From a virus (Duplodnaviria > Heunggongvirae > Uroviricota > Caudoviricetes), in the IMG/VR virus record IMGVR_UViG_3300035517_000267, positions 67,521 through 131,520 of that record: a stretch of DNA of 64,000 bases; one strand, 5' to 3'. Both the position numbers and the translations under genes were made by a program. How positions within the stretch are numbered: the stretch's first letter is position 1; each line of letters starts with the position of its first letter. The notes under the pieces are model-generated. The model saw only the letters and a list, made by a program, of their open reading frames with translations, was not told the origin of the DNA and did no database searches. This document shows positions 289-62,030 of the stretch, piece by piece.

Positions 289-289
289 T

Positions 290-5675: not shown

Positions 5676-5677
5676 GA

Positions 5678-6426: not shown

Positions 6427-6439
6427 AAACTATCTCCTT

Positions 6440-6476: not shown

Positions 6477-6479
6477 AGC

Positions 6480-7676: not shown

Positions 7677-7693
7677 AGTTTCCTCACTTCTTA

Positions 7694-7984: not shown

Positions 7985-8159
7985 TTTCTATCTCCTTGTC
8001 TATCATATCTCGCATTATCTTTAACCCATTTTCATCTAAAGTAGGAAATTTAACTGGGAGTGTTAATGTATCCCCTATTTTTTCAACTATATGCTGATGA
8101 GTTTCTTGAAGCTCGTCTACGCTAATAAGATTTTTCATATCATAAAGTAATATATTCAT
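7965..8159 (-). CDS. hypothetical protein
   Basis: ORF with an AGGAGGAATAAAAAG ribosome-binding site and the conserved promoter upstream. Confidence 0.4.
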   Translation of the reverse strand: MNILLYDMKNLISVDELQETHQHIVEKIGDTLTLPVKFPTLDENGLKIMRDMIDKEIENVKAVC

Positions 8160-17292: not shown

Positions 17293-17347
17293 TATTTTTA
17301 TTTCCTTTCCTAAAGCTAAAGGGGGAGGTTTTTCCTCCCCTTATAAA

Positions 17348-28466: not shown

Positions 28467-28781
28467 TTAAATACCTTCATCAAGATTTATGTTATCATTC
28501 TCTAGCTATTTCATTGCCATGTCATAAGTAATTCCACCTTGCGAATGATCGCTTTTTGCCATATTAAGATAAAACGAGCAAATAGTACCATAGGCACTCC
28601 AAGGTAGTCCTACTAAAGAAGTAATCCATGCTAAAGTACCAATATAACCTCGATAAACGCAGAAAAAAGCAAGTAATATTCCAGATAAAGTAACTATCCA
28701 AAGTAAAAGCCTTATATCTCGAATAATTTTCTTAGAATAATCAAGGCTTTCTATCTAATCTTTTACTTTTGCTTTTTTCAT
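28467..28781 (-). CDS. holin-like two-TM protein with in-frame TAG codons
   Basis: The ATG overlaps the amidase TGA stop (ATGA). Sequence MKKAKVKD[TAG]IESL... with two hydrophobic helices, then a second TAG 12 codons before TAA. It does not appear in the ORF track because the TAG at codon 9 splits it. Confidence 0.45.
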
Positions 28782-29533: not shown

Positions 29534-29539
29534 TTTTCC

Positions 29540-30799
29540 TCACCCTCTCATTAGTTCGGCACGCTCGGCAATCCTAGATCTATGACATTGCTTAAGCGTT
29601 ACTTCACCATAATAGCTTTGACCTCTAAATACTTTAGAAGCCTTAATTAATCCATTATTATTGTTTTTATAAACATCTAGATCAACTTGAGTGCGGTCAT
29701 CGCCTTCTATGATACAAATACAATTCTCTCCAATTCGTTGAAGAATAAGTTGCATTGTATCAATTGTAGTATTCTGAGCTTCCGTTACATAAACGCCAGC
29801 TCTAACATTTATATCCATTCCTCTACAATCAGAGACGGGAATCAGTTCAATTTTTCCTTCGTTAATTAATCTTTCAATAGCTTCAATTCCACCAAACTTT
29901 CCTACGAGGAAATTGCCAATTTGTGAATCAAGCAGTTTCGTATTTTTATCACCCGGATAAAATCCGAGCTTAACTGAGTCTCTAGTTGCTACAGGGTTGC
30001 AAAAAATTATAATTTTATCAATACGATTTTTCTCAAGTTGTTGAACGAGATAAGCCATGGCTATATATGACTTTCCACTTCCAGCTTTTCCACGAATAAT
30101 TGTGAATTGGTTATTAGATAAGCTATCAAACAAAAGCTTCTGATAAGGGTCATTCTTATAAGGCTTAACCTTCCCAAACCAGTTTGAATTAAAGTCCTCA
30201 TAATCAAGGTAATCATGACTACTACCTGACCATTTCCGCAAATCCAATATTTCACCATCAATACTTCGCAATATTAAATACTCACCTATCAAGAGGTTAA
30301 AGTGATTATAATTTATATCTTGGTAAAATTTGGTAAGAACCTCATCATTTGCATATATCTCTTTATAACCTGTATATTCATCATTATTTTGTGCGGCTTC
30401 TTCTATCATCCCATCTCCGAAAAACAGCTATGCAATATTCGCTAAAGAAAAATCATTAGTAACAAATATTACTTTATCAGGATGAATAAAATTATTCGCA
30501 TAAATGGCATCGCTTAATATCCTTGTATCATCTGTTATCGTGAGAAACTTTTCTCGAATGGTATTTTCCATATTTTCAGTATGAATTATTAAATCATACA
30601 ATTCTATATTTTCTCTAAGCCATTTAAGAATTTGTCTGGCTAAATATTTAGTATCAGAATCTTTTGTAGAAGAAACCTTTATTCTTTCCAATTCATTAAG
30701 CGTAATAGAAGAAATCATTATTTTTTCTTCTGGCATTTGTTCTCCCAAGGCTAAAAGAGCACTTGTGTCATAGAAACGAATGTCATGTTCCATAGTCAT
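29540..30799 (-). CDS. phoH: PIN-PhoH fusion ATPase (YlaK-like) with an in-frame TAG at the domain junction
   Basis: The PIN ORF (30428-30799) ends at TAG 30428-30430 and the PhoH ORF (GKAGSGKS) follows in the same frame six codons later. PIN-PhoH is a known single-polypeptide architecture. Confidence 0.7.
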
Positions 30800-31065
30800 C
30801 TTCCTCGTCCTCTATTATTCTAGTGTTAAAACCTATTACTCGCGTTTCCTCGGTCGAAGATTCTTCGGATAGTTCCTAAATTTCAACTCCATATCGCATT
30901 ATAGTAACGCTCATACGAGTTTTAATAAGTTCAACAAATGTACTAAAGATTTCAACAACACCTTCAATAAAAGTTAATCCGAAAGTGCCTATTAAAAATC
31001 CAAGAAGTAAATAATACAATAAAAATCACCTTCTCTAACTATTATTGAAAATGATTAACTAATAA

Positions 31066-33815: not shown

Positions 33816-33896
33816 TGTTCTTCTTCCTTTATTAACTTCTTCTCTTGACGGAAAAATTTTTATGAATTAAAATATTAATATAAATTAAATTTCTTC

Positions 33897-34214
33897 CTAA
33901 ACTCCTATATATTCAACAATAAACCAATTCATTATGTCCCAAAGACGATAACCATTCCAGTGGCACCATCCGTTGGTGCTATCAAGCTGTTCAAAATATC
34001 TTCCAGTTTTACGATCTTCAAAACGTAGCCACACATAATATTCCATTCCAGAGCCATCTTCATAATAAGCAGCTTGTGGACAATTTACTTGATGAATATA
34101 AAAACGCCCTTTCCACAAATTATCATTCTCAATGTTTTTATTAATTTTCTTAACATAAGAATTTATTTTGCGCTGATGTTTTTTTCTATTCCTTGAATAA
34201 ACCCAATTATCCAT
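33897..34214 (-). CDS. hypothetical protein
   Basis: 105-aa ORF, no recognisable motif. Confidence 0.4.
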   Translation of the reverse strand: MDNWVYSRNRKKHQRKINSYVKKINKNIENDNLWKGRFYIHQVNCPQAAYYEDGSGMEYYVWLRFEDRKTGRYFEQLDSTNGWCHWNGYRLWDIMNWFIVEYIGV

Positions 34215-34240
34215 GACTCATATCTCCTTTTCTTTATCTT

Positions 34241-39258: not shown

Positions 39259-39417
39259 ATCTTACCTCCTAGGGTATGGCGGCGGGGGACGGTACTGACC
39301 CGTCTTCCAAGCTTTTAGAGAGCCTTGCATTACCTTTATGCTACCCCGCATTTTCTAATTCTATTATACAGGAAAAATTTCATAAAGTCAAAAAAAAGAG
39401 AGGGTTTATTCCCTCTC

Positions 39418-41769: not shown

Positions 41770-42936
41770 TTATGTAATACTGCTAATAGTCCCCCATGAC
41801 ACAGGAACCGCAGTCGAATCAATACCCAATAGATGATATTGAGAACTATATATAAAGTAAGCTATATCGCCAGCGTTGATTATTCCAGCAGTAATTGCTT
41901 TACCCTAATAATAAATAGATTTTGCGCCTTTATTATTAACATTTAATGTTGCACTTGCAGGAACATCATATGTAAATTTGACAGCTACAACGCCTCCAGT
42001 GGCTAAAGAATAGCTTGAAAGACTTGCGACTTTTGCCGCAGTAGCAGCAGCAGTAGAACAAGTAGCATAACCTTGACCTAAAGAAGCATTAGAGTATGTA
42101 CTATTAACATCACCTGTTACCCACCAGCCAGTATAACTAGTTCCACTTATTGTTAAACTAGAAAAGTAAGTTAACGTAATCAAATAGTTGACAGGATAAT
42201 GAGTAGTTAATCTTGTAGTACCATTGCGATAACAATTAATAGCACCAGTGGTACTTCCATCTGCTAAAGTTAATTCCAAAGTAACATTAGTGCTACTGGG
42301 ACTAGTATAAGGAAGCCAATAGTTAATTGTTAAGCCATCATAAAGAGCTTTTACACTAGAAAGAACTCCAGTCCAAGCTGCTGTAGAAGCTGTTTGTGTA
42401 CCTATAACGTAACGATTTTCTTGTACATCAATGGAAACATTAGAAGAGCCATCAAATGAAGCAGAACCTGAAAATCCATTATCTAAACTTATTGTGCGGG
42501 CGGTGGCAAGTTTATCAATACCACTCCATGTGCCATCACTTTTTAGATAATTGGAAGTTTGATTCTTGGTGGGTGCAGGCACTAAACCTCTGGTTCCCGC
42601 AGAAGAAGAGGTCGCTCCAGTGAAAGTTTCTACATTATTCTGAACTACCGTCCAGTCAGAAGCTTTGTATGAGGATGAATAATCTGAAATACAAATTATC
42701 ATATCTCCATTTTCCACTGTACCTACACTTGATATAGTAAAGGCGGCTGAGGCTTTGTAAGTCCAGCCTATTTTATAATTGGTTAAACCAGTAATTCCGG
42801 CAGCACTAGAAACTGTTCCCTTAAAGATTAAACTAGATGCAAGAGTCGTCTCAACTGCAGTAAGGCGATCTCTTGCATCCTGATCTTTAATGTCGTAAGT
42901 GGTACTGCCGAGTTTAATCTTAGAAATGTCAGCCAC
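41770..42936 (-). CDS. fibre protein paralog (conserved N-terminal anchor, Ser/Thr-rich shaft); one in-frame TAG at 41905-41907 extends it to the TAA at about 41770
   Basis: N-terminal MADISKIKLGSTTYDIKD matches the next gene's MADLLSKIKIGTTTYDIKD. After the TAG the frame continues for 44 codons (GKAITAGIINAGDIAYFIY...) to a TAA followed by a rho-independent terminator. Confidence 0.55.
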
Positions 42937-45946: not shown

Positions 45947-45979
45947 TTACTCCTTTTATATAAGAATTGAATTAACTTC

Positions 45980-46309
45980 CTATTCAGTCATAGGAATATC
46001 TTTATCAACCCACTCAAGAGTTCCAGTAGAACCCTTTGAAGGGATTTGACCAACGGAAGCAGTGTCGAAGCCATATAATTCAGCTTTAGACCCTGATAAA
46101 ACAAGGCTTTTACCATCAACAGAGAGAGTGGCTTCTCCACCGAAATACTGTAAATTATTCCACGCAGTTTTGCCATTGCCAATTTTGAGTTTACCTGTAT
46201 CTAATTCATAGCCAGGCTCAGCTTCGGCAAGAATAGGATTTACATTTTTCCAGTCTGCGGCATTACCACGCTTAAATTTAAAAGTAGTAGTATAAACAGT
46301 TGTAGCCAT
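45980..46309 (-). CDS. tail-fibre-repeat-like protein
   Basis: GNGKTAWNNLQYFGG motif. Confidence 0.4.
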   Translation of the reverse strand: MATTVYTTTFKFKRGNAADWKNVNPILAEAEPGYELDTGKLKIGNGKTAWNNLQYFGGEATLSVDGKSLVLSGSKAELYGFDTASVGQIPSKGSTGTLEWVDKDIPMTE

Positions 46310-46323
46310 AATTTTTCACTTCC

Positions 46324-46986: not shown

Positions 46987-47088
46987 TATCTTACCTCCTT
47001 AATAAAAAAGGCGGAGCATAAGCCCCGCCCATAACGTAATAGCACAATAAAACACATATGAATCAAGCAACTGCGAGCTAAACTCGCT

Positions 47089-47269
47089 TGGTAGTCGGTA
47101 CGGGATTCGAACCCGTGACTTCAGCGTTGGAACTAAAAATAAGATTTGAACTTACATCTTTGACCACTCTTCGTCTGAATAAAATCTTATTTCAAATTCA
47201 AAAAGTCAATATTTTTCTTTAAACTATTTTAGCGAAAGGCTGATGACTTAACCTCTTGTCGAACCGACC
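47089..47269 (-). tRNA. tRNA-Glu (UUC) gene interrupted in the anticodon loop by a 106-nt tRNA-like insert (47128-47233)
   Basis: 5' half GGTCGGTTCGACAAGAGGTTAAGTCATCAGC-CTTTC, and 3' half AC-GCTGAAGTCACGGGTTCGAATCCCGTACCGACTACCA. Acceptor (7 bp), D arm, anticodon stem TCAGC/GCTGA, a 4-nt variable loop, canonical T loop TTCGAAT and CCA are all present. The predicted spliced loop CTTTCAC reads UUC. Confidence 0.55.
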
Positions 47270-47687: not shown

Positions 47688-47774
47688 TGGTGCGAGCGGC
47701 GGGACTCGAACCCGCACGTCCTTGTGGACACGAGATTTTAAGTCTCGGGTGTCTACCACTTCCACCACGCTCGC
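47688..47774 (-). tRNA. tRNA-Leu (UAA), type II
   Basis: GCGAGCGTGGTGGAAGTGGTAGACACCCGAGACTTAAAATCTCGTGTCCACAAGGACGTGCGGGTTCGAGTCCCGCCGCTCGCACCA; anticodon loop CTTAAAA; long variable arm; CCA encoded. Confidence 0.8.
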
Positions 47775-48387
47775 TTATATTTTATGAAAGACCCCTTCGG
47801 GTTGCTATCTGTTCAATCGTAGCTATATTCAGTCAATAGGGAGACAAGAGTGTGCCTAGAGGAGCTACCTCTAAACAGCTTGCCCCAGCTTAGAGCCAAG
47901 TCCCATGGGAGATTGGTTACTCCCAACTTTCACCCACCATTCACATCTTGTATCTGTTAAAACCATTAACATAAAAATTTGATGTAATCTTGGCAGACCA
48001 TTTGGGCTACTCGTACTGTGACCTTATCTTATACACCGATTTCTCGGCTTCAACTGCCAAGTTCCTTAGTGACATTCCAAGGTTTGCAAAAACTGTCACA
48101 TTTTTACCTAACTTGGATTCTTCTCCACAGGAGCGTCTATTGCGGAACCGATAAGACCATACTTTTAACTGCGATTGTGATAGTGCCTTTCTTCCTACAG
48201 AGCTAAAGTTCTTTAGCCTCAACCCAACCTCACGAATTGAGCCGATACAAGATTGCTAGGGTATCCTCTAGTACCTTGCTACTTACGGAAGAAGCCTCAG
48301 CACAATGGCGTTTGTCTACACTGAGTTCTTTCATAATATTTTGTCATTCTTATTTATGTATAGATGGAGAATAACAAAACCACCTTT

Positions 48388-48461
48388 GGCAGTCCCTACT
48401 CGTGACGATCGAGTACCCTCTGATTCAAAGTCAGATGTGCAGTCCGCTACACCAAGGGACT
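48388..48461 (-). tRNA. tRNA-Gln (UUG)
   Basis: AGTCCCTTGGTGTAGCGGACTGCACATCTGACTTTGAATCAGAGGGTACTCGATCGTCACGAGTAGGGACTGCCA. Perfect 7-bp acceptor, anticodon loop CTTTGAA, CCA encoded; the T loop ATCGTCA is non-canonical. Confidence 0.6.
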
Positions 48462-48519: not shown

Positions 48520-48650
48520 CATATATATATTATACTCTTTTTTTATTATTTTTTCAAATTTTCTTTATTTCGTTCAAAAAGATTTTTTCTTTCTTTCTTT
48601 CCTTACCTTGTATATATATTATACTCTTTTTTTATTATTTTTTCAAATAA
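48520..48650 (-). repeat. two direct repeats of about 37 bp (tatatattatactctttttttattattttttcaaat) upstream of the late block; late-promoter candidates
   Basis: Copies at about 48527 and 48611. On the minus strand they read GAGTATAATATATATA, close to the -10 region of the conserved early promoter motif. Confidence 0.4.
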
Positions 48651-48917
48651 AAAATAGGCTGGTTTAAAGTCACAGCCTAGGACTTTTGCACATACATTTA
48701 AGGAATAATAATAGTACAAAAACTATTATACTTCTGAAAAAAACTCTAAAAATATTATATTCTTTTTTTTTTGTTACGGCAAATTATTCTTCTTCGCTAG
48801 TCTTTTCTTCGTTGAGAGCAGCAGTAAGCTCTTTAGCCCCGTCCGCAATATCTTGGAAGATTTTCTTTAAACTTTCTTGGCTCTTTTTACCCAAGATAGA
48901 TAACTTCTCTAAATCTG

Positions 48918-51053
48918 TCATTCAAAATCTTCTCCTTCCAATTCTTCAATTCCACCTTCTTCTTCCATAGATTCTTTATCAGTTATATATATCATAATAG
49001 GTTCATCTATGTCATAGAAAGTTAATGTATCATTTTCATAATCTATAGAATAATGTTCCTCTGAAAGTTGCTCCTTAAGAGGTAAGCCTATCTCATACCA
49101 TATATAAGGTAACTTTCCAATTAAAGGACTAGCTTTTAAGAACTCAAAATCACATTCACTTAACTTATTTCCTTGATAAATAAAAGAATTATTTTCCATT
49201 TTTTGGATACCAGTGTCTCCATTTTCATCTAAGAAATATTTTCCATCATCAAGCTCAAATATTACGCCTAATATTCCACCAACCATTTTATCAAGTGTAT
49301 AATAAACAGGAATAAGTTTAAGATTAACTGAATTGCTCATTTCACTTAAGCGATAAATAGAATCATCATATTCTTTTCTAGCAAATGACGTTGTAGTTAA
49401 TGCTCCAAAAATTTCAACAAGCTAAACCACAATATTAAAACGAGATTCTCCATTTATGGTTGTATACATTACATAATTACCATCGCCAATATTAGAATTA
49501 AACTCAATCTCATTTGTTTCTTCATTTTGAGTCATGTTTATATAGATTTCTTGGACTTCTGGTCTTGGACACTCCTAATAAGTAGCTATATACATACCAT
49601 TTTTTCTAGTAGAAAGTTTACAATATCCTTTATAAATATTCCATTCTGCGTGGACTTCATCATCTAAAAGCCAAGGTGCTACCCATATAGTATTACCTCT
49701 ATAAACATTACTAGGACACGTTGTAATAGAATTTTCTTCTTCGCCTTCTATTATTGAACCTTCTTCGCCAAAATCAAAAACTAATCCATTTTGACAGCCA
49801 TATCTGCCAGAAACACACAAAAATTCATTTTCATATTCAAATATTTTTGCTTTTGCTTCATTGTCATATTCATCTTCATTTTCTTCGTTTCTAATAGTTA
49901 ATGCAGCATTGTAAATCTTTAAGGGTCTACTCTGAGTAGCTTTTTCATTATCAGTAACTGCATATACTTCAAAATAAGCGCCTTCTGTATACAAAGCTGC
50001 TAAAACATACAAAAGAATAATTCCAATAGTAGAATTATCAGAATCTTTATAATCAAAAAGTTTGTCTATAGACTCAACTAATGAAACTTCTCCCATAACA
50101 AATGAAGTCAGTTGGTTAGGTTCATAAGTACCATTTAATCCACCAAAAATAGCATAAATGGCTTGATAAACTGTATTAACAATAAAATTTATTAAACCTT
50201 CATTTCCATTGTTAAGGTCATTAAAATCTAAACTATTAACGACAGTAACTACAGTATTAATAATACCATTCCAAGTGGTATTGCAAATAGGAAATAATTG
50301 GTTAATGAATTCCGCAAGAGAAGGAACATCTTTCAATTGTTTAATAGCAGCAATAAGATTATCAATCAGTTCTAATCCATCTTTTACTAAAGGAGCATAC
50401 CAAACTTCATCTGGGTCTTGTTCCGCAAGTTCTTCTAATATGTCCTTAACGGCATTACTTTCCCAAGCTTCTTCAATATCATCTATTAAAGTAACGATTT
50501 GAGAAACGTCAATTTCTGGAAAATATCTTAAACAAATGTCTGATATAACATCTGCGGGAACCCTGATATGTAGAGTATACTTAGGATACCTAATCTTAGC
50601 CTTAGCTCCTGCTATTATCATCTAGTTGAAGTAAGTAAAGAAGTCAGGGGAAAATACATCTTTCACCTAACTAACGAAACTGACTATTTCCTTATAAAGA
50701 TAAGAGTACGCTAAATCATCTATATCAGTATCACTTGCATCTTCTCCAGCTTCTTCTTCTACCTTCTTTTCAATATCGTTAATCATTTGCTTGTAATTAG
50801 CTATAGTTTTTAATACATCCTAAAATTTAATATTATTATCAAAATAACTATGATTTTCAATAGTAATACTAGGATTTGTTCCAACTCCAAGATCGTCAAC
50901 ATCATCCATTACAAACTTAAAGGTAGGCGTAGGATTAACATCATGCAAACTAAAAACAGCATCTTCTCCCGTATCAGTGGGTAGTTTAACCGAATCTATT
51001 TCATTATAAGTAATAGTGTTACCCAATGAGTTTTTTAAACTAATATTAACCAT
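48918..51053 (-). CDS. late structural protein of about 711 codons read through five in-frame TAG codons; function unknown
   Basis: ORFs 50820-51053, 49575-50621 and 48918-49340 share one frame and are separated only by TAG codons, near 50820, 50667, 50622, 49575 and 49422. There is one start with AAAGGAG 9 nt upstream of the ATG at 51053, and one terminal TGA at 48918. Confidence 0.65.
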
Positions 51054-51055
51054 TA

Positions 51056-52093
51056 TTATTCATCTCCTTTAAGTGTAATCGTAGAATCTTCTTGCTCAAG
51101 ATTGTCGGCAGAAGAAATGTTATAAGTAGTTCCATCAACATTTACATTTGATATATTGTATTCAAACTCACATACTATTTCACCATTTTCAAGAGTAAAA
51201 GGAAATCTACATCTAAAATAGGAAATATCCTGTAAAGTATTTGCAGTAGAATCGCTAAATCTAGTAAAATAATTGCTTTTATCTATATCACTTAATACTA
51301 CTGCGTTTTGTAAAGTGTCAATAACTTGCTTCCAAGCAGTTTCTTCGTCTTGGAGAGCAGAAAACTAAACGTCTTGTGGAACTTTAACTCCACAAAAATA
51401 AACACCATAATTTATAATTATATTATTTAAAAAATCTTTTTCTGCCAAAATTAGTTTTCCTAAATTGTTTAATAAATCTGGGATGACAGAATTTTCAGCC
51501 CTTGCCAATATTCCTAAATATTCGTTATAGGAAATATTGTCAGTTTGGTTAGCCATAACAGTTTCGTTATAACTGTCTATATTTAGCCTTGTATAAATGG
51601 TTATTTTATCATAACTAGGGGAAATAAAGGCGGCTCCCGCACGTCCCCAAGTATTAAACTATGAAGTACGAGAAACATAATCATCAGGAATTGGTGCTAC
51701 TACTATATCTCCTGTTGCATAAGTACCTTGTTTTATTGCTATTTGAGAAGAGAGAGAGGGAGTTATTATCTCTCCCTCTTCTACCACAAGCTACCTTTTT
51801 GATTCTTGTTTGCCCGAAGTCGCGGTAATTAAACCAGTATCACTAACTGTAATAACAGGTTCAGGGCAAAGAACATTAACAGTAGCTTGTTTAAAACCAA
51901 CTAAACCTTCGCTAGGAGTTAAAGTATAAGTGCCATTATCCGTATATGTTTCTTTTACAGAATCATTTAATAATTCTTCTGAATAATAAGGAGCGAAGGT
52001 TTGCTGAGAGCTATCGGTTGGGACTAAAACTTCTTTGATTCCCTCGAAAGAAACACCTTCACCCGATTTATTTAATAAATATACTTGTGGCAT
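51056..52093 (-). CDS. late protein(s) with three in-frame TAG codons and an apparent +1 frame change near 51720
   Basis: MPQVYLL... ends at a TAG (51791) and stays open for 35 codons. An overlapping +1 frame (…YATGDIVVAPIPDDYVSRTS[TAG]FNTWGRAG...) runs into MANQTDN... (51556), crosses another TAG at 51365, and ends at the TAA at about 51056. A frameshift, a sequencing indel, or two overlapping genes are all possible. Confidence 0.35.
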
Positions 52094-52165
52094 TTTAACC
52101 CAGCCTTTCAGGATTTAGTTTCTGTTTGCACCTTTATTTCATCTTCAAAGGAAATATCAACTATT

Positions 52166-52759
52166 TTAGTCATCAGTAAAATCTCCTTCTATATCTTCTT
52201 CAAAATTAATAGTAAAACTTAAATCATTAGCGGGAAATCTTAATTGCATAGCATGAGCCGTTGTAATAGAATTGGCAAGCTAGTTAGCATATATTAAAGT
52301 AGTTCCTTGATATAAAGCTATAGCATCTATAACGCCCCAGCCACCTTGATCCACAACGTCGTCTGTAGAATTATTTATATTGTCAGCAGAACCATCATCA
52401 ATCTCAGGGAAAAGAAGGTCATAGGCATTTATAACGGTTGCCTCTGAACCAGTATGTTTTAAAACTAAATAATTTCCAGATTCATAACTTGATTTAAGGT
52501 TCTTAGCTGTGGTTCCAGTGCCTTCAACGTCATCACTGTAAACTAAAATTTGTCTTTTTACATATTGTCTTGTATCAGAGACTTTATCTATCTTGTCTTG
52601 ATGTTCTTCGGGAAGGTGACTCTTGATAGAATCAACGCTTATTTTTATAAATTTATTTTCATCTTCGGCATCTTCATCCCAGTAACCTAATTCAATATAA
52701 AAAGTTCCGTTACTAAAAATTTTATCCCAAAGCGTCTCTTTACCTTTGGTAGTTATCAT
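52166..52759 (-). CDS. late protein with one in-frame TAG
   Basis: Strong ribosome-binding site AAGGAGGAAGAATAATTATG; TAG at 52280-52282; the frame continues for 37 codons to a TAA. Confidence 0.55.
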
Positions 52760-52761
52760 AA

Positions 52762-53208
52762 TTATTCTTCCTCCTTAGTTACTTCTTGCAATTTAATTTT
52801 AATGCCTTTTTTAGGAGAGCTAGAATAAGCATTTAGTTTTATTAAATGATTTTGTCCTAAAGAAACAGGGCTATTAAATTTAATAGCATACATTGCAACT
52901 CCATCTGCTTTATTAGTAGAATTTTCTCCATTTTCTAAGATATATCTACCATCATAAAACATTAAACCATCTACTGCTACATTCCCGGAACTTTTATTTT
53001 CGTTAAATAAAACCGAGCCAGTAGTTTTCCATTCAAGGTTAGATGTATCAAGTGAGCAAGATATTGACTTATTTCTCGTTGTTCCATTATCATCCAGGCT
53101 GGTAATTCTGTTCATACCGCTTTCTTCACCCTAGCCAAGAGCAATATACTAAGTACCATTGGAAAATAAAGAACTCATAATTAAGCCTAAAAAGGTTTTT
53201 GTGACCAT
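52762..53208 (-). CDS. late protein with two in-frame TAG codons near the N-terminus
   Basis: AAGGAGGA ribosome-binding site 7 nt upstream of the ATG at 53206-53208. Sequence MVTKTFLGLIMSSLFSNGT[TAG]YIALG[TAG]GEESGMNRITS...; terminal TAA. Confidence 0.55.
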
Positions 53209-53226
53209 GTTTAAATCCTCCTTGGA

Positions 53227-55480
53227 TTATCTTATTGCTGTAGCGCTTTCAGTAGCGCTATAATCATATATTTGTTTTATTTTTAAAGCATAGTCAGACT
53301 ATACCGGATCTATCCAATCAATGTCTAGCTTTAAAACTCCATCATTCGCATCATAGGAATATACTTGATAGATTTTTAAAGTATCATCTATTTGTACTGG
53401 ATCGATCCAATCAGACGGCTCAGTCTACTCTACTTCTACTTCAATATCATTAACAAATGTTAAAGAATTTTGGACATTTACTATGCTAGTTTGCGGATAT
53501 ATGCACACACAATTTGCATCATTAATAAAATTTATAGAAGAGCTTAAAGCCTCACTATAATCTTTTTGCTCTGCAATATATAAAAGACAATTATTTGAAA
53601 AGTTTAAAACTAAAGATGAATCCTATTTATAATCTTGTTGACTTACTGTATGTAACCTACAATTATTTATAAATTGTGTTTTTGAATCTAAGATTGAACT
53701 ACAATCTTTCCAACTAGCTATATATAAATTATAATTATTTAAGAAGTTTAAGTCTGATTTGAGATTTTCTTTTTGTTCTTGATTACTTATAAGCTATAAT
53801 CTGCGGACGCCGGTAGTATGTAGCGACATATCTTGTTTTGAAGATTGTTCATTCTCGTATATTAGCTTCGCCTAAGCGTTTGCCGCAAACTCCAAGCTAC
53901 TTTCTCCATTATATGTACAATCTACTGTTACAATAGAAAAATCTAAAATAGTAAGAAAATAAGAGTTCAAGAATTGTGTACAAGCTTTACTAGCCAAGTC
54001 CGCACAATTATCAGAAACCAAAGTAGCTCCCAATGAAAGAGTTGAATTTATCGAATTTATTAAATTATTCTAATTATCACTCTTATATACATCTGCTATT
54101 CTATAATTTTTTTGAACTTGAACATTATTTTCAAAACTATCTTTTAAATCTTCTTCTGCTATTAATTGCGCATTAGCTTTTTTAACAATCTAAGCTGTAT
54201 TTTGCAAACTTGCTTCATTTGTTTTAGGAGAAACTAATGCCAATCTTAATCCTAAACTGGTAAAACCTAAAGATTCTTTAAGGTTCGTTGTAGAGATCTC
54301 TCCTGGCATAACAAGAGTTGCATCAAAGTCTTTTTGAACCTTTAACTTTGGAGATTCCAAATTAGCATCAAGGTACCTAGGCTCTATATTAGTGCCACTA
54401 TAATCTTTTTTAATCTAAAAATTTGAGGTTGTATCAAAAAATTTTAAAAAGTCAACTTGACGTATGTCAAGTAGTTTCGCAGACCTTCGTGTATAGAAAT
54501 TATAGGTATCTTTAATGCTCGAAGGAAACGAATGTCTAGTACAATTTAAGGCAAGACTTTTTCTTTTTATTTTAAAAGTATAAGTGTCATTTGATTCTGG
54601 GACAAGGTTTTCTCTGTCTACATTAACCGCAAAATTTTTCCGATGTAATTTATAAGTGTAAGAGTCATTTGATTTTGGAACAAGATTTTCTCTAGATAAA
54701 TCAATAGCTTTATCAAATCTTTTCAAATAATAGGCATAACTATCTGTAAGAGAAAGACCTTTTCTAGTAATATCTTGTGCCCTTGTGCGCCTTCGACCTA
54801 GCAGCGTCCGCACATTTTTATCCTTTAGAAAAAGTCCTTTTCTTTCCAAATTTTTAGCTTTAGTTTTTCGTAAAATCTTAAAACTATCTTTAGTTTTAGA
54901 ATTACTGTTAAATAATTCCAAATTACTTGCATTGCCATCGCGTTTTATAACAAAAGAAAATTTAGCTTTATTTGAGCCTTCTTGATTAGCAAGATTTATT
55001 GCAGTAAAACTTCTTTTAAACTAAAAATTGTCTTGTATATCAGCATTAATATCTCCATCTATACAAACGGTTGCATTTAAGCTATAGATAGGAATAACCG
55101 TATTAGATGTATTAATACTGTTATTATATATTAATAAATCTTCTGCGCGAGTTGAATTCTAAGTCTAAGCAAATGAAAAAAACTCTTCATCGAATGTTTT
55201 TCCTGGGATAATATGAACTATATTATAAGTATTTTGCGGACGCACGCTTACTGATTGTGACACATCTTGGTCTATAGAGCATTTCGCCATACTCTATAGC
55301 CTTATGTCATTAATAGAAATAATATTAGTTTTTTCATCTGCTTTTGTCGGCAGCTAAGTTGTACAATGTAATCGTACATTCATACTAGCCGCAACTGAAT
55401 TATCTCCTATTAATTCTGGCTATTCGTTCTAGATAGTTACGAATGTAAGTCCAGCCGCATTATCAAACTAGGTTGTAGCT
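53227..55480 (-). CDS. large TAG-rich late protein (tail-fibre or tail-like, with DWIDPV and ENLVPxSNDxYTxK repeats); start not resolved
   Basis: ORF 54415-54921 ends in TAG and shares a frame with the TAA at 53227. The 1.3 kb between has no ORF of 60 codons or more in any frame under the standard code, and in-frame TAGs were confirmed at 53299 and 53425. Confidence 0.45.
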
Positions 55481-55558
55481 TTATAGTTTCCTTTTAATAC
55501 AATTGATTTTTCGTTTAGAGGAAGTAATTGATAATATAATAATAAATATTTTTGTTTA

Positions 55559-56215
55559 TTATCCATTTGAGACATCCCTACTTACGCAAGACCATTTGCC
55601 TTCTCCCAACGCTATTCCAACTATTTCATGAAAAGCATTTTGCGTAGTAGCGGCTAGATGACCCACTAGTCCAATTGTATTTTCTTCTAATCCTCCTATA
55701 GCAATAGTAATATAGCTAGATTGAGGTATTGTATAAGATATATAAAACATATCCCCCAGCGTTTTCGCAGGAGGAATTGTAAAGGCAGTTATATCAGTTA
55801 AAGTGCCTAATATATATACATTATTTGCTTTAATAATTCCATCAGATGGCAATGAAGTGTTTACAGTCATGCCAGGCGGAATTGTAGTGTCAGTATATTC
55901 TTTCGCTTGTTTTAAAACATTATTGATTGAGCCTTCTGTATCCTCAGAACCATTTAAAGTATTAATATTCTAAATTATATCTGCGGCGACCTCGGTATGT
56001 GAATCGATCCAGCTTGATACTTCTTTCAATGTATCAAGCGTTTCGGGCGCACCATCAACCACCGCCGCAATTTTTTCATTTACTAATGCTTCTATATCAT
56101 CTGTTGATATATGCTCGGATACAATTTCTTTTATTTGTTCAACAGCTTCTTCTCTTGGTAGGAAATCTTTCGCATCAATGTATTTTTTAGCAAGAGTATA
56201 AGTTGTAAAATCCAT
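55559..56215 (-). CDS. late protein read through one TAG (ORFs 55970-56215 and 55559-55870 fused)
   Basis: TAG at 55970-55972; 33 in-frame codons link to the MTVNTS... ORF; terminal TAA. Confidence 0.55.
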
Positions 56216-56221
56216 GAATTA

Positions 56222-56407
56222 TTACACCTCCACCCACTCTTTGTCACCATTTAGCATAAACAGTTTATGAGTAGAAATCACAAAAGCGGTACTTCCCATA
56301 GGAATATCTGTGGGTAGATTCATTATATCACTATCTGAGTCACAAACATATTCTAACGCATTATAGGTAGCACGCCCGCCGACAGAAGTTCGATTAAACA
56401 TTGACAT
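56222..56407 (-). CDS. small structural protein, paralog of the gene at 46324-46641
   Basis: Shared CDSDSDI..LP...GSTA motif. Confidence 0.4.
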   Translation of the reverse strand: MSMFNRTSVGGRATYNALEYVCDSDSDIMNLPTDIPMGSTAFVISTHKLFMLNGDKEWVEV

Positions 56408-56617
56408 TCTCCTTTCTAGCGAGTTTTCCTTATTAGTCTTAAAAATGGTTTTCTAAGGATTTTCCAAATTAGACCAAAAATAGAAAAAGGTGGTTTTTTC
56501 AAACCACCTTTACTCGTCTCAAAAGTCTCTCCCATTTGCGGATGAGGGCTGCATTTCGCACAGGGTCACGCTCTTTAAGAATGTGTATACGATTTTCAAT
56601 ACTCAGTTCAGTATGTT

Positions 56618-56842
56618 TCATATGCCCTCCGAAATAAACTTGTTTGCCAACTCTTCGTTAATCATAAGGAGCGGACCTTCTATGGAGTTTATCTTAGCCG
56701 AAATAAGATCCTCCGCATAATAATCTTCGAGAGTCCGCATAACATCTGTAAAAGAATTACCTTGTGTAATTATGCAATATTCTTTTTCTTCCCTATCCTC
56801 AGCAGAGTTCCAATATTCAATTTCACAAACAGCAGTCCACAT
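56618..56842 (-). CDS. hypothetical protein
   Basis: ORF with the conserved promoter upstream at about 56864-56905. Confidence 0.4.
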   Translation of the reverse strand: MWTAVCEIEYWNSAEDREEKEYCIITQGNSFTDVMRTLEDYYAEDLISAKINSIEGPLLMINEELANKFISEGI

Positions 56843-56863
56843 AGTCCATTCTCCTTTTCTTAA

Positions 56864-56905
56864 TTTCTATATATATTATATCATTATTTTATTAATATAT
56901 CAATA
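56864..56905 (-). promoter_or_regulatory. conserved promoter copy
   Basis: Plus strand tttctatatatattatatcattattttattaat. Confidence 0.55.
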
Positions 56906-57039
56906 ATCTTCCCATTCTCGATAAAAAGTTACACAAGCTTCCGCAAGCATCCCACAAATGAAGCTAAGAAAAGAATAATCAGCAAGAGAAGCAACAAGTA
57001 TCCACGCAAGGAATATGAGAAGTTCTATCAGTATTTCTT

Positions 57040-57315
57040 TCATTTGATACCAAGACGCTCCTTCAAATCATTTATTTTTGCGCGATCTTCCTCACTAAGG
57101 GAGTAATCAGGAGTAGAAGGGGTTTCTGTGAAAGCGGAAGTGCGCCCTATGGGGTTCTTGGGCATGGTTATAGAGATAGCAAATTGTATCTCTTCGCCGC
57201 CCTCCCGCGCATTTACATATATTTTCTTATCTTGTGTGCCTACATAGCAGTCTCCAAAAGCTTGGGTAATAGTATTAATTACGTTTTGTCTTGCGGTTTC
57301 GCCACGTTTTGCCAT
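57040..57315 (-). CDS. hypothetical protein
   Basis: 91-aa ORF, no recognisable motif. Confidence 0.4.
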   Translation of the reverse strand: MAKRGETARQNVINTITQAFGDCYVGTQDKKIYVNAREGGEEIQFAISITMPKNPIGRTSAFTETPSTPDYSLSEEDRAKINDLKERLGIK

Positions 57316-58577
57316 GTTTTTATTTTCCTTTCATTATAACAAGTGCTACAATAAGCCTTGCCTTGATACCAAATTATCTCATTGTCATAAAGTCTAGTAT
57401 GACACTTATCACAAGTTACGGCATAATCTTCCTCGTCTCCATATTCTGCGGAGCAAGATTTACAAAGGAAGCTATCTGGGAATTCTAAGCGCTCGCTCCC
57501 GCAAACTGGGCAATATGGTCGCTCTCCAATCTTAATAGAAAAGAGGTTGGAAAACAGCTCTCTCTCCTCCTCATAGCGCGGTTCCCGCAAAATACTCTTA
57601 GTATAATGGGTATGAACGTCACTATTTAAAGCAACAATTGGCGCATAAGTGCTAGAAGTTTGCAAATCACAATATCCGAGTAAATCAGATGTATCAATGA
57701 TGTCTCTAGTATCGAATGTGCGGGAACCGGCATTGAGTTGATTATAGACAAGCATTCCGCGGTTCCATTGTCCTTCTACGATTTTAAAACCGTAATCTTG
57801 CGGAGCGTCAAATTGAGTTGGAAGAAGTTTTTGAAGAGCTTGGTGAGTTAAATTAATAAGCTCTCGGTTTTCATAAGGATACCCCTTATCATAATATATG
57901 TTGTGGTGTAGATCCGTATGGACGAGCATCCGCCATTTTTTCGAGTTCCAGCAAGCTCCGCATTTTAATTCTTGGGCTTCAATATCATCTGCTAAGAATA
58001 CTACAAACGTGGTATTGTCTACCATATAGCTTAGAGTTCCATTTTTATAGTCTCCGGTTAAAGAGGAACAGGAAGTCCAATTTTCGTTATTTTCGGAAAT
58101 GGTTAAAAAATCTTGGGGATCGACGGAAAAATAAAGGTTTCCCGCAATCTTATCTTCCTGCATAAACCGAGAGGCAGTATCTTGAACCCAGCGAAGAGAT
58201 TCTTTATTCGAGAAAAATTTACGAAAAGATTTAGATAACTTTGAACCTATTGTTATGTTGCGGGAAGGATCGGGAAGTAAAACTCTATTATCAAAGAATC
58301 CTCTTTCATTTTCTAAGAGGAATATTTTAAAATCTTTATTTAAAGTGTTGTTTTCTTCAAGGGTATTTATAAAATCGTTGAATTTTTCTTTCTTTTTGGA
58401 AGAAGATAAATTTGCTTTTACATTTGATACAACTTTAAGAATAGTAGTATCTCCAAAAAGCTTGATAAATGGAAGCTTCGCAGCATACCATTGCTCAGTT
58501 AGTCTTTTTGCATTTAAATTAAAAGGGAAATTTTGCGAAGTTTTAAGGGTGTATTCAATGTCTTTCTGTATTGTCAT
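57279..58577 (-). CDS. hypothetical protein with a C-terminal multi-Cys zinc-binding region
   Basis: C-terminal CPVCGS...CKSC...CDKCH...CSTC. Confidence 0.45.
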   Translation of the reverse strand: MTIQKDIEYTLKTSQNFPFNLNAKRLTEQWYAAKLPFIKLFGDTTILKVVSNVKANLSSSKKKEKFNDFINTLEENNTLNKDFKIFLLENERGFFDNRVLLPDPSRNITIGSKLSKSFRKFFSNKESLRWVQDTASRFMQEDKIAGNLYFSVDPQDFLTISENNENWTSCSSLTGDYKNGTLSYMVDNTTFVVFLADDIEAQELKCGACWNSKKWRMLVHTDLHHNIYYDKGYPYENRELINLTHQALQKLLPTQFDAPQDYGFKIVEGQWNRGMLVYNQLNAGSRTFDTRDIIDTSDLLGYCDLQTSSTYAPIVALNSDVHTHYTKSILREPRYEEERELFSNLFSIKIGERPYCPVCGSERLEFPDSFLCKSCSAEYGDEEDYAVTCDKCHTRLYDNEIIWYQGKAYCSTCYNERKIKTWQNVAKPQDKT

Positions 58578-59391
58578 ATTGCTGTACCATATGATAGTAG
58601 TTTCCGCAAGTATGGCAACTGAATCCTGGAATTTTACAACGCTGCTTGCAGTTTAATCTTCCTTCGGCAAAATCTTTGTCGAACATCAAATGGTTGATAG
58701 GAGGTAAACCTTTTATTAAGAGATCAATTGTATTAGAGAAATCATTGTTTTTATATATGCGGAAAAGGGCTTCTTCTCTGTCAAGATTGGACTCTTTAAA
58801 GTCTATAATATCTATGAAATCTTCATATTGAGAAAGATTTACTGGAAGAATATAAAAAGATTCTGGAGACATTTCAGAAATCGCGCTATTAGAAGATATA
58901 GTGGGAGATACTCTAATTTTAGTGTTAGGATTTTTAAAAGAAAGGATTCTTGTTTGAAATCCCAAAGAGCCATCAATATAAATATCCGAAACTCCAATCT
59001 TTTCTAATTCTGTAAAAGTTTCCCAGTCGGCGATAGGATACTTTAAAAAAGCTTTATAACCCATTAAGAGAAGTGTTTTAACAAGAGAAAGATTTCCTTC
59101 AACTGTATAGTCTATAGAAGAAGGAATCAATTTTAATTGAGAAATAAGTTTATCTAGATCGTATTTTGCGGGAATTGTTATGACGAGTCGTTGATTCTCG
59201 CTTAATTTTTTTAATATCAAGCCGAGTTGATTGTAAGGGCATTTAATTTCATCGGCTTCCGCAAAATATTTAGATTTATAATTTGAACTAAATTTCATAG
59301 TTAAAAAAAGGAAGGGATTTTTCCCTTCCTTAGACATTGCGGCGATATGCGCTAAGCTTCTTAGACTTCCCGCCCTCATTGGAAGAAGCAA
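58555..59391 (-). CDS. hypothetical protein
   Basis: 278-aa ORF, no recognisable motif. Confidence 0.4.
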   Translation of the reverse strand: MLLPMRAGSLRSLAHIAAMSKEGKNPFLFLTMKFSSNYKSKYFAEADEIKCPYNQLGLILKKLSENQRLVITIPAKYDLDKLISQLKLIPSSIDYTVEGNLSLVKTLLLMGYKAFLKYPIADWETFTELEKIGVSDIYIDGSLGFQTRILSFKNPNTKIRVSPTISSNSAISEMSPESFYILPVNLSQYEDFIDIIDFKESNLDREEALFRIYKNNDFSNTIDLLIKGLPPINHLMFDKDFAEGRLNCKQRCKIPGFSCHTCGNYYHMVQQYDNTERH

Positions 59392-59770
59392 CAGTCATAG
59401 TTTCCTTAACAACTCTATTAACTTCCGGCGCCGCAAGCTGTGTCAGTCGCGCAACAACCATCGGAGAAGTAATATCCTTGTCATTCAGAACCTCAAGAAT
59501 ATCATTGATAGTCATATAGGTTGTATCAGAAAGGGCATCATAAATCTTCTCGCGAAGAATATCTCCCTCTTCCTTCTTCTTTGCGGAACGCTCCTTAGCT
59601 GCTGCGCTCTTATTCTCCAGAAGCTGTATCTCATGGGCAATAAAATCATGCAGATCGGCGTAAGTAACTTCGCTGGAACCAAGACTAATCATATCCTCCG
59701 CAGTATCAAGGATAGCATCAAGTGTAGAAAGCATTGCCTTCTTAATGGGCTTCTTATTAGTAGTAGTCAT
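59330..59770 (-). CDS. hypothetical protein
   Basis: ORF with the conserved promoter upstream. Confidence 0.4.
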   Translation of the reverse strand: MTTTNKKPIKKAMLSTLDAILDTAEDMISLGSSEVTYADLHDFIAHEIQLLENKSAAAKERSAKKKEEGDILREKIYDALSDTTYMTINDILEVLNDKDITSPMVVARLTQLAAPEVNRVVKETMTVASSNEGGKSKKLSAYRRNV

Positions 59771-59871
59771 GTGAAATCTTCCTTTCTTTATTGTTTCTAT
59801 AGATATTATACTATATTTTTTTGTTTTTGTAAAGAGGCGGAAAGTGGCTTTATATAGAGTTTTTTAGCTTG

Positions 59872-60072
59872 TTATCTCTCTTCCATATAGCGCCATTCCC
59901 GCAAAATTTCCTTGGAGAAAGAGAAGATATATTCGCCTTCCCAAGTTTCAAGTTTTATAGAGGAAGGAGTCTTATCTTCAAGTAAATAATCAACAGCTTT
60001 TTGATAGGAGGGAGCTTCAATTACGCCATAGAGAGTTTCTTCGGGGAACTTCATTTCATAATCAAAATACAT
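59872..60072 (-). CDS. hypothetical protein
   Basis: 66-aa ORF, no recognisable motif. Confidence 0.3.
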   Translation of the reverse strand: MYFDYEMKFPEETLYGVIEAPSYQKAVDYLLEDKTPSSIKLETWEGEYIFSFSKEILREWRYMEER

Positions 60073-60094
60073 TTGATAAGACTCCTTTCAGTTT

Positions 60095-60427
60095 TTAGAT
60101 GAACCAGTCAATAATAGCTTTGGGATTATTGTAGTATTTTTCGCAAAGCTCAAATTCTTTGATTATAGTATCTTTAAATTTGGTAAGGGTTTCAGAACTC
60201 CAAGAGGGATTATTGCGGAAAGCCACTAGAGTCGCAATGTTTGCCGCCAGAGAATAAGAAAGTGCGCTATCATCGCCATGCTCATAAGAATCAAAGGCAT
60301 CATAAATTTCTTCATCAATTGAGTCCATAAAATTATTGGAATTGAGGGCTTCTTCAAAGAGTTTAGAAAGCTCTTCTATGGTATAACCTTCGTTTATATA
60401 TTCTTTTATAAGGGTTTTAATATCCAT
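60095..60427 (-). CDS. hypothetical protein
   Basis: ORF with the conserved promoter upstream at 60452-60492. Confidence 0.4.
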   Translation of the reverse strand: MDIKTLIKEYINEGYTIEELSKLFEEALNSNNFMDSIDEEIYDAFDSYEHGDDSALSYSLAANIATLVAFRNNPSWSSETLTKFKDTIIKEFELCEKYYNNPKAIIDWFI

Positions 60428-60451
60428 ATCTCCTTTTCTCCTTTCCTTAAC

Positions 60452-60492
60452 TTTATTATATTATATCATAATTTTTTATAAAAATCAAAAGA
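60452..60492 (-). promoter_or_regulatory. conserved promoter copy
   Basis: Plus strand ctttattatattatatcataattttttataaaaatcaaaag. Confidence 0.55.
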
Positions 60493-60878
60493 GAAAAGTT
60501 TGGTGAAATCACTTAAAATATATATAAAATATATAAATGTGACTATGGAGCAGCTTCAATAAATAATCTCTAAATAGCTTTTTGATTTCTAAGTTGTGTA
60601 TCGTAATCGCCACCATGGTAGAGTTTTGTTTTCCTTTGGAGCGAAGCGTAAAAGGCTAAAACGAAACTCTTGTTGCCGATAGGCAACAAATACATAACAA
60701 ATTCAAATAATTTATTTTGTTCTATTTTCAGGTATTTATGAAGTAATTTTCTTAATTCAATAGAAATACCTTAAATTTTTAAGCTATATATAATATAGTG
60801 CAAAAAAATATGGTATTTTTCTACACATCATGATTGCTAACTTCGTTTAGCACAATAAAATAAAAAGGAGTAATAAAA

Positions 60879-61589
60879 ATGAGTGAATTAAAATTAGGAA
60901 AGATGACATGGAGAGAAATTTCTGTTTGGTTTGGATTACAATAGGATACCTTGAACAAAAATCCTAAATCAAAAGAAAAAAAATTAAATATCTTAAAAAA
61001 ATATGCAGATTATCATATAGAGGGAAAAACAGTATATATAGATAAAATATATATACCTGAGTACTCTAAAGCATATGACATTATAGATAGAGAATTTAGC
61101 CAAGAATGGAATCAAGAGACAAAAATAGATACCTGTTCTAGAGTTGGAAAAGCTATTTATGAGAAACATGCAGAACTCCAAGCTCAAGTTTCTGAATCTA
61201 CAGCTAAAGTATATACCAATAAAGTTAAAGTTGAACGCTATGGAAAAAATCACTTGCAAAATAGTCGTGGAACTTGCGGCTATAGCAAATATATTTGGAT
61301 GGAGAAGAATGGAAAAGAACCTTTATCAGATGAAAAGTTGAAGAAGTTAAGAGAATGTGCGGCTGCCGCATATAAAGATTCTTCTGAGCAGATAGCCGCA
61401 ATAGATGATGATTTCCGCAAAGGTAATTTAACCCAGGAAGAAAGAATAGAAGCTATTGGAAATATAGATACTAATGAAGCTTATAATAGATTTATAACTT
61501 TAGTAATTGAAGCTATTGGGTTTATGCCCATTAAGAAAACTTTATTGATAGACGAAGAAGGAACTGCTTGGGCAGTAGATATAATATAA
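60879..61589 (+). CDS. plus-strand hypothetical protein with an in-frame TAG at codon 22
   Basis: ATG at 60879 lies 8 nt after AAAAGGAG. Sequence MSELKLGKMTWREISVWFGLQ[TAG]DTLNKNP... continues in frame; the ORF track starts at a TTG just after the TAG. Confidence 0.5.
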
Positions 61590-61794
61590 TTTCCGCTAAT
61601 TTTTTACTTATTTAGAAAAATAAAACGAAAAAATAATTCTTTTTTCTAATTTCATTTCAAATTTATCTAGTTTATAAGAATATTATACCGAAAAAATTTT
61701 AAAAAGTCAAATTTTACTTTAGAATTATTATTTGTTATAATTATAATGGAGAAGAGAAATAGAAGATTGTTGGAACTTGTCCTTTCTTTTGTTA

Positions 61795-61925
61795 GACGGG
61801 AAAGACTGCTATGCAGTCTTTCCCTTAGAGACGAGTCGCAAAGGCGACTCGTCTCGTCGGAAGAAACCAGCGACGAAGTCGACTGGTTTCTTCCTCTATT
61901 ATTTTGATAGGACTAAAGGAGCTTG
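61795..61925. terminator. four consecutive perfect GC-rich hairpins (12-bp stems) between convergent genes
   Basis: gggaaagactgc/gcagtctttccc; gagacgagtcgc/gcgactcgtctc; ggaagaaaccag/ctggtttcttcc; aggactaaaggag/ctcctttagtct. Confidence 0.5.
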
Positions 61926-61954
61926 TCTCCTTTAGTCTTTATTTAGTATATATT

Positions 61955-62030
61955 ATTTAGATATACTAGCACTTTTTACCTAAACGATACTAGCACTTTT
62001 TACCTAAACGATACTAGCACTTTTTACCCT
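61955..62030. repeat. three tandem direct repeats of tactagcactttttacctaaacga (iteron-like); a fourth related copy lies at 62745-62780
   Basis: Exact 24-bp unit repeated 2.7 times downstream of the winged-helix gene; a variant tactagcattttttacctaag sits upstream of the same gene. Confidence 0.7.

Follow-up and report, generated by a model that had tools for sequence, protein, structure and literature searches.

Introduction

Phages that read the amber codon TAG as glutamine (Gln) have been reported from the gut, where TAG occurs in late genes together with phage-encoded suppressor tRNAs (bioRxiv 10.1101/2021.08.26.457843), and this assignment has been proven by metaproteomics in gut crAss-like phages (PMC9523058). 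A 136-kb, tRNA-rich phage group that probably infects Clostridia also uses TAG as Gln (PMC10607447). Here, we analyzed a stretch of 64,000 nucleotides from a Caudoviricetes phage (IMG/VR record IMGVR_UViG_3300035517_000267, positions 67,521 to 131,520; hereafter the window), and focused on a large open reading frame (ORF) that contains 16 in-frame TAG codons and an internal repeat, the DWIDPV pair, in which TAG stands where the other copy has Gln. All genes of the window lie on the minus strand. We conclude that it very probably derives from an uncultured, siphovirus-like gut phage of ~130 kb, distantly of the SPbeta/EF1 type and with a probable Clostridia host, in which UAG is a sense codon for Gln through the phage's own tRNA(CUA). 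The original prediction, made from the sequence of the window, had called TAG to Gln the usual reassignment in recoded phages, in agreement with the two gut phage studies (bioRxiv 10.1101/2021.08.26.457843; PMC9523058).

The code 15 gut phages (crAss-like, Lak, Garnet, Topaz and others) share with this phage TAG codons in structural and late genes, replication genes in standard code, a phage tRNA(CUA) and TAG aligned with Gln; a recoded homing endonuclease, also present here, was noted by those authors for one lineage (bioRxiv 10.1101/2021.08.26.457843; PMC9523058). The present phage differs from them in lineage (distantly SPbeta/EF1-like, with a probable Clostridia host), in that the orphan genes of its recoded block form a cassette specific to this lineage, and in that no "code-change module" of aminoacyl-tRNA synthetase and release factor was seen in the 64-kb window. 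The mechanism is that of a standard code-15 phage: it encodes its own tRNA(CUA), has no TAG in its early genes and many TAG codons in its late genes. The phage is a new lineage of a known recoding. With it, the phages that read TAG as Gln gain a lineage of Clostridia type that is distant from SPbeta, and the understanding of how such recoding works is unchanged.

The phage phAss-1 and its proposed group Phassvirus share with the present phage a genome of ~130-136 kb, a DNA polymerase III alpha gene, numerous tRNA genes, tRNA-Sup(CTA), TAG as Gln in tail and other genes, and a predicted Eubacteriales host; the ViPTree dendrogram places that group near EF1, a phage of Enterococcus, and PMBT10, a phage of Enterocloster (PMC10607447). 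EF1 and a related Enterocloster phage, PMBT24, are among the best DnaE matches of the present phage. The likeness to phAss-1 is a general resemblance; phAss-1 lies outside the top 25 DnaE matches, and GenBank phages gave no DNA-level match. The DnaE protein is <40% identical to that of any GenBank phage, with SPbeta-like, Enterococcus EF1, Enterocloster and Staphylococcus phages as the best matches. Proteins on Oscillospiraceae and Clostridiales genome contigs match the Amidase_2+SLH endolysin at 54-67% identity over almost all of its length, a similarity that hints at the host, which is probably a gut Clostridia (Oscillospiraceae-like) bacterium.

Results

The large ORF and its DWIDPV repeat pair

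The large ORF lies in a stop-to-stop frame of 785 codons (53227-55581, minus strand; stop upstream at 55582), which contains no TAA or TGA and 16 TAG codons. Its features are as follows.

53227-55575, minus strand: large ORF, 782 codons from the ATG at 55573-55575 or 779 from a second ATG three codons on; TAA at 53227-53229
55468, 55429, 55420, 55354, 55294, 55165, 55159, 55021, 54415, 54190, 54070, 53872, 53794, 53623, 53425 and 53299: low coordinates of the 16 TAG codons of the large ORF
53341-53412, minus strand: repeat copy 1, DWIDPVQIDDTLKIYQVYSYDAND
53392-53394, minus strand: CAA (Gln) in repeat copy 1, at the position equivalent to the TAG at 53299-53301
53248-53319, minus strand: repeat copy 2, DWIDPV[TAG]SDYALKIKQIYDYSATE, exactly 31 codons from copy 1
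53299-53301, minus strand: TAG of repeat copy 2 (residue 7), also TAG in strains L001 and L004
LDIDWIDPVQSDYALK: example of a predicted tryptic peptide across a TAG site, with TAG read as Gln

TAA and TGA together make up ~5% of codons over the minus-strand frames, and arithmetic from these counts gives a chance of <1e-15 for an open run of 785 codons. The TAA of the large ORF is followed by AAGGAGGA and then by the ATG of the next gene. With TAG read as Gln, 16 of the 45 Gln positions are TAG and none is CAG, which makes this ORF an extreme case. We infer from its position that it is a late gene.

A self-comparison scan showed that the large protein consists mostly of degenerate tandem arrays, with periods of ~26 amino acids (aa; residues ~206-400) and ~24 aa (residues ~550-715), in addition to the DWIDPV pair. 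The 24-aa and 26-aa arrays stay in frame across several TAG codons; as a guide to the meaning of TAG they were rejected, because their copies are too divergent. Pfam and PHROG scans of the large protein gave no match, and no homologue was found in IMG/VR or in a set of 5.8 billion proteins, with TAG translated either as X or as Q. AlphaFold2 prediction of the TAG-free residues 186-386 (window 54418-55020) reached a pLDDT of 34.5 and gave no usable model.

The DWIDPV comparison confirmed TAG opposite Gln, as originally predicted: the coordinates are right and the residue opposite the TAG at 53299 is encoded by CAA. In the 20-residue core of the pair, 13 of 19 comparable residues are identical. 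The ungapped BLOSUM62 self-score is 78, and the best scores of 100 protein shuffles averaged 40 +/- 5 with a maximum of 60. The repeat is therefore not a chance similarity, since its score exceeds that of every shuffle. A further TAG (53425-53427) falls within the range 53290-53440 considered in the original prediction. By itself the repeat is one data point, suggestive only and weak evidence for Gln.

TAG corresponds to Gln codons in strains and relatives

In strains and relatives, TAG is equivalent to CAA and CAG. The assignment of TAG to Gln is supported mainly by the strain comparison, the family tally, the reciprocal test and the tRNA evidence, and less by the repeat. The window sites that carry the comparisons are listed below.

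53131-53133, minus strand: TAG in the 148-aa gene, YIALG[TAG]GEE; CAG (Gln) in L001 and L034
42073-42075, minus strand: CAA (Gln) in the tail-fibre gene; faces TAG in the 75%-identical L060/L061 orthologue, with 16 of 16 flanking residues identical
50298-50300, minus strand: CAA (Gln) in the 711-aa gene, "AEFINQLFPICN"; faces TAG of L089, VEFIN[TAG]FFPICN

Exact-protein look-ups led to 30 contigs with 97.4-100% identity to the window, one of which (L032) is identical over 48619-61992. Over these near-identical contigs, the change of TAG to CAG at 53131-53133 is the only one at an in-frame TAG. Between strains, the 148-aa gene differs synonymously at 8 codons and non-synonymously at 1 when TAG/CAG is taken as synonymous. 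Compared with L035, the large ORF has 24, 16 and 40 differences at codon positions 1, 2 and 3, and this third-position bias runs along its full length.

For the family-wide comparison, the tail-fibre gene led to 20 IMG/VR contigs (L060-L079) of 65-196 kb, with 60-76% aa identity across the tail-fibre cluster. All their ORFs were translated with TAG as X and compared all-against-all. Only alignments in which nucleotide differences are dominated by third codon positions were kept, and orthologous sites were merged. The unfiltered tally opposite TAG was Gln 57% and Trp 23%; Trp was rejected as an artefact of antisense or off-frame ORFs and fell to zero after the filter. After filtering, Gln made up ~79% of sites in well-conserved contexts, with both CAA and CAG opposite TAG. 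The original prediction had asked for such an alignment of TAG positions to homologues: of 44 independent columns that contain sense codons as well as TAG, 28 have a Gln majority, 3 an Asn majority, and 2 each a majority of Asp, Trp, Lys or Glu. Leu, Tyr or Trp, which the original prediction had named as residues that would speak against Gln, is not consistently placed at TAG positions. Single TAG columns show 15/15 CAA, 11/12 CAA or 8/8 CAG. A BLOSUM-based log-likelihood was highest for Gln (-93.0), followed by Glu (-123.0) and Arg (-131.6). For the reciprocal test, 15 orthologous columns with TAG in the relatives had a local identity of at least 50%; the window has a Gln codon in 6 of these, and the Gln background is ~3%.

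An exhaustive HMMER search with a TAG-free piece of 348 aa from the 711-aa protein found three relatives only, one of which led to the contig L089. On this contig, the 345-aa and 711-aa genes have homologues with 44-52% identity; it is the sole late-block homologue found. Two TAG codons of the window are kept as TAG in L089, and two TAG codons of L089 face CAA in the window.

The phage encodes an amber suppressor tRNA

39277-39350, minus strand: amber suppressor tRNA, anticodon CUA, 74 nt; called by ARAGORN, 41.4 bits with the Rfam tRNA model (gathering threshold 29)
about 48387-48461, minus strand: tRNA-Gln(UUG), A1-U72 and G73; called by ARAGORN and Rfam, reference for Gln identity features

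The fold of the suppressor tRNA is a cloverleaf in which the variable loop is short, the D-loop of 7 nt contains GG and the anticodon stem has 5 bp. It has a U1.C72 mismatch, G73, U35, an encoded CCA end and a class-I shape; the short variable loop and class-I shape speak against Ser, Leu or bacterial Tyr identity. For E. coli glutaminyl-tRNA synthetase (GlnRS), G73, an easily opened 1:72 pair and U35 are Gln identity elements. ARAGORN was run on the 20 related phage loci and the window, and the distinct sequences among its 321 tRNA calls were tabulated. In all 7 distinct CUA tRNAs, G73 occurs together with a 1:72 pair that is weak or mismatched (U.C, U.U, C.U or G.U), and 14 of 15 distinct tRNA-Gln sequences follow this pattern, having G73 with A-U, U-A, G.U or A.C at 1:72. 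The other isotypes mostly have A73 or G-C at 1:72, with tRNA-Arg(ACG) as a partial exception. A suppressor tRNA is found at the syntenic position in L060/L061 and L078.

In E. coli, the supE suppressor (glnV amber suppressor) and the su7 tRNA-Trp(CUA), which is charged with Gln, illustrate that CUA together with G73 and a weak 1:72 pair leads to Gln at UAG. Those are single mutant host tRNAs with partial suppression, whereas in this phage dozens of TAG codons that must be read as sense are served by a tRNA of its own.

A second form of tRNA(CUA), 90-91 nt in length and extended by a long insert within its variable region, was observed with G73 and a U1.U72 mismatch in three relatives (L064 2328-2417, L076 182-272 and L077 12249-12339). 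The long form of L077 lies immediately after a tRNA-Ser(UGA), yet a TAG of L077 faces 15/15 CAA in homologues.

TAG codons are concentrated in a tail-side block

48918-56218, minus strand: TAG-rich block of six consecutive genes (218, 782, 148, 197, 345 and 711 aa), ~7.3 kb, 28 in-frame TAG codons
41905-41907, minus strand: single TAG in the tail-fibre gene 41770-42936; opposite it, Asn (75%-identical orthologue) or Tyr, His or Asn (distant homologues)
13076, minus strand: single in-frame TAG in the GIY-YIG endonuclease gene (12653-13351)
30428-30430, minus strand: single TAG between the PIN and PhoH halves of the PIN-PhoH gene 29540-30814

In-frame TAG codons were counted after a credible start codon. 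The 37 other genes (10,186 codons) contain none and all stop at TAA or TGA; they include gyrase B and A, NAD-ligase, both DnaE halves, primase, helicases and endolysin. The observation that 0 of 43 genes end in TAG is partly circular, because ORFs were defined by TAA and TGA, and up to about four small genes could end at TAG. By these sequence counts, the recoding is concentrated in the tail-side block, the tail-fibre gene and the ORF by the endolysin gene, and the replication genes follow the standard code.

The GC content of the TAG-rich block is 31.7%, compared with 35-37% elsewhere in the window. The 218-aa protein has tail-fibre PHROG matches, and PHROG and Pfam scans of the late-block proteins gave nothing beyond these. 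Megablast of the late block against GenBank phages found no match, nor did the 711-aa protein against GenBank phages and metagenome contigs. The six late proteins as one concatenated query also gave no match, although concatenation was probably a poor query design. The block is absent from L060-L079, which have in its place (roughly 1-8000 of each locus) arrays of up to 24 tRNA genes, mostly with a transfer-messenger RNA (tmRNA) gene. This tmRNA encodes the tag peptide DNNYFDSHMAA, and ARAGORN assigned a four-base anticodon "taaa" to tRNAs in the arrays of several relatives.

The standard code cuts the block into dozens of meaningless fragments, and code 15 gives six complete proteins including the 85-kDa repeat protein. 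A public protein collection already contains exact TAG-as-Gln translations of three of them (148, 197 and 779 aa), which come from Logan assemblies. In the JGI data the same proteins are fragments of 39-117 aa, and the longest JGI contig with these genes has 131,520 bp.

The PIN-PhoH gene is cut in two by standard-code gene callers, and PHROG 2765 spans its TAG as one stretch (residues 10-417). A PDB search with PIN-PhoH covered only the PhoH half, with the TAG outside the aligned part. An ATG with a weak Shine-Dalgarno motif lies 7 codons past the TAG, and the locus could yield two proteins early in infection and their fusion later, when TAG is read.

The small ORF 28467-28790 (minus strand), which directly follows the Amidase_2+SLH endolysin gene (28778-29539), has two hydrophobic segments and two in-frame TAG codons, one of them at codon 9 after the ATG. 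It had no PHROG match; as a candidate holin, it would need the suppressor tRNA for its translation. In the genes 45956-46315 and 33885-34217, TAG lies a few codons ahead of the real stop, and for 45956-46315 the read-through C-terminus agrees in length with homologues.

Points against Gln and alternative explanations

Several observations weigh against Gln or qualify the evidence for it. Direct evidence at the window's own TAG sites is thin, since homologues of the TAG-rich block are almost lacking. Where L089 can be aligned, window TAG codons face Asn, Leu, Glu, Leu and Thr, in poorly conserved stretches. The GIY-YIG TAG is Lys in the three closest homologues and TAG in two others, and a comparison of two GIY-YIG paralogues places Leu opposite TAG; over the family, TAG columns hold Lys, Glu, Gln and Leu, which fits Gln without singling it out. 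The tail-fibre TAG at 41905 faces Asn in the 75%-identical orthologue. In the DWIDPV pair, CAA and TAG differ by two bases, and the TAG at 53299 lies at the edge of the conserved block, with I/S, D/D, D/Y and T/A as the next four residues. When FSNGT[TAG]YIALG[TAG]GEE is aligned with its paralogue in the adjacent gene, FSNGTFYIELGYWDE, Phe and Tyr stand opposite the TAG codons. The second of these sites, opposite Tyr, is CAG (Gln) in a 98%-identical strain, which shows that such low-identity paralogue alignments mislead. The body of tRNA(CUA) is no closer to tRNA-Gln genes than to other isotypes, and no aminoacyl-tRNA synthetase or release-factor gene was found within the 64-kb window. The charging route would be in question if the host has no GlnRS. 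Codon counts are also not specific for Gln: the block has 66 CAA, 3 CAG and 28 TAG against 207 CAA and 99 CAG elsewhere, and AAG, GAG and TTG are likewise about two-fold depleted in it. A compensation in codon usage (CAG+TAG in late genes 32%, CAG share elsewhere 32%) was rejected as an indicator, since TAG added to AAG, GAG or TTG fits about equally well.

Decoding of TAG as another residue (Glu, Lys, Asn, Tyr or Trp) we consider quite unlikely. It could draw on the window TAG sites that face Lys, Asn, Glu, Leu or Tyr in homologues, on Phe and Tyr in the remote paralogues, on Glu as second in the likelihood test, and on the tRNA itself, as E. coli tRNA-Trp typically also has G73 and a weak 1:72 pair. 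The residues other than Gln occur mostly at low local identity, however, and none is the majority in more than 3 of the 44 columns; the log-likelihood gap between Gln and Glu is 30 units, the Trp signal came from antisense frames, and the sole strain-level change is to CAG. That CAA and CAG both stand opposite TAG means that a single-base mutational neighbourhood alone is insufficient to explain the pattern. Pyrrolysine at TAG is extremely unlikely. ARAGORN labelled the suppressor tRNA as "tRNA-Pyl", a label that it gives to any CUA tRNA, and tRNA-Pyl has a short D-loop without GG, a 6-bp anticodon stem and a 3-nt variable loop, unlike the 7-nt D-loop with GG and 5-bp stem found here; moreover, no contig of the phage has a Pfam match resembling pylS or pylBCD, and the homologous positions are Gln, not Lys.

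Two further explanations concern whether UAG is read at all and how completely. If the TAG codons were true stops, the long ORF would be illusory and the region would be a series of short genes or a pseudogene in decay; in JGI contigs, standard-code callers indeed cut it into many short "hypothetical proteins". This is highly unlikely, because 785 codons free of TAA and TGA are not a chance outcome, the repeat arrays and the DWIDPV pair run in frame across TAG codons, and strain differences keep their third-position bias over the whole ORF. In addition, two TAG codons are kept in a 52%-identical homologue whose frame is also open, PHROG 2765 aligns unbroken across the PIN-PhoH TAG, and a cognate tRNA(CUA) is encoded. 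Decoding as Gln at moderate efficiency in competition with release factor 1 (RF1), with TAG codons acting as attenuators for dosage or truncated isoforms, is unlikely. The Pfam matches of the window include no release-factor or anti-RF1 gene, and at TAG codons near the real stop (45956-46315, 33885-34217) or between PIN and PhoH both read-outs would be usable; but the window is about half of the genome, so missing factors may be elsewhere, and the length agreement of the read-through C-terminus of 45956-46315 favors full reading. By arithmetic, each of the 16 TAG codons must be read with an efficiency of well over 90% for more than a negligible amount of full-length product.

Model of UAG decoding

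For the decoding of UAG as Gln, we propose that a host enzyme would charge tRNA(CUA) with Gln, and that the charged tRNA would then out-compete RF1 at UAG. The replication and other early genes, which have no TAG, would be translated correctly under the standard code of the host, and the six-gene block (48918-56218) would be completed only once the suppressor tRNA is abundant. The same dependence is predicted for the tail fibre, the homing endonuclease, PIN-PhoH and the possible holin. The 782-codon ORF would need 16 successive UAG read-throughs and may be made only when decoding is nearly complete. Late timing and a regulatory purpose would follow published models of other recoded phages.

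A more far-reaching proposal is tentative, and we give it a low probability. Rather than an ordinary late-gene set, the 7.3-kb block would then be a cassette of tail-side orphan proteins, low in GC and specific to the lineage, at the site of the relatives' tRNA arrays, with unusually tightly gated expression (16 UAG codons in one ORF). The gating suppressor tRNAs would form a distinct class, with mismatched 1:72 and in some cases 90-91-nt forms. If the Clostridia host has no GlnRS, charging would need a non-standard route through GluRS and GatCAB, which might give mixed Gln/Glu decoding.

Other features of the window

Homing endonuclease genes interrupt replication genes at three places on the minus strand.

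2725-3636, minus strand: GIY-YIG gene, between the DnaE halves 3822-5681 and 543-2732
12653-13351, minus strand: TAG-bearing GIY-YIG gene, between the DnaB-like halves 13527-14567 and 12022-12729
15919-16800, minus strand: LAGLIDADG gene, between the AAA_24 gene 16927-17340 and ORF 15179-15922

GIY-YIG homologues from other large phage contigs in IMG/VR (L018, L019 and L020-L022) contain one to four in-frame TAG codons each; recoded endonuclease genes thus recur across these phages.

Terminator-like hairpins (minus strand) were found just upstream of the TAG-rich block (56486-56511) and downstream of the tRNA/ROOL region (47009-47030); they suggest a single transcription unit from 56.5 kb down to 47.0 kb. 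A full-length ROOL RNA (47772-48349, minus strand; Rfam RF03087, 322 bits, E 2.5e-73) lies next to the TAG-rich block on its downstream side, flanked by the tRNA-Gln(UUG) (48390-48461) and a tRNA-Leu(UAA) (47691-47774). ROOL RNAs assemble into multimers that consist of RNA alone and have no known function (PMC12286853). A tRNA-like element (47131-47233, minus strand; 23% GC), without an ARAGORN call, scored 40.5 bits with the Rfam tRNA model and has a 36-nt insertion in the anticodon loop and a CCA end; it could be an intron-bearing or degenerate tRNA.

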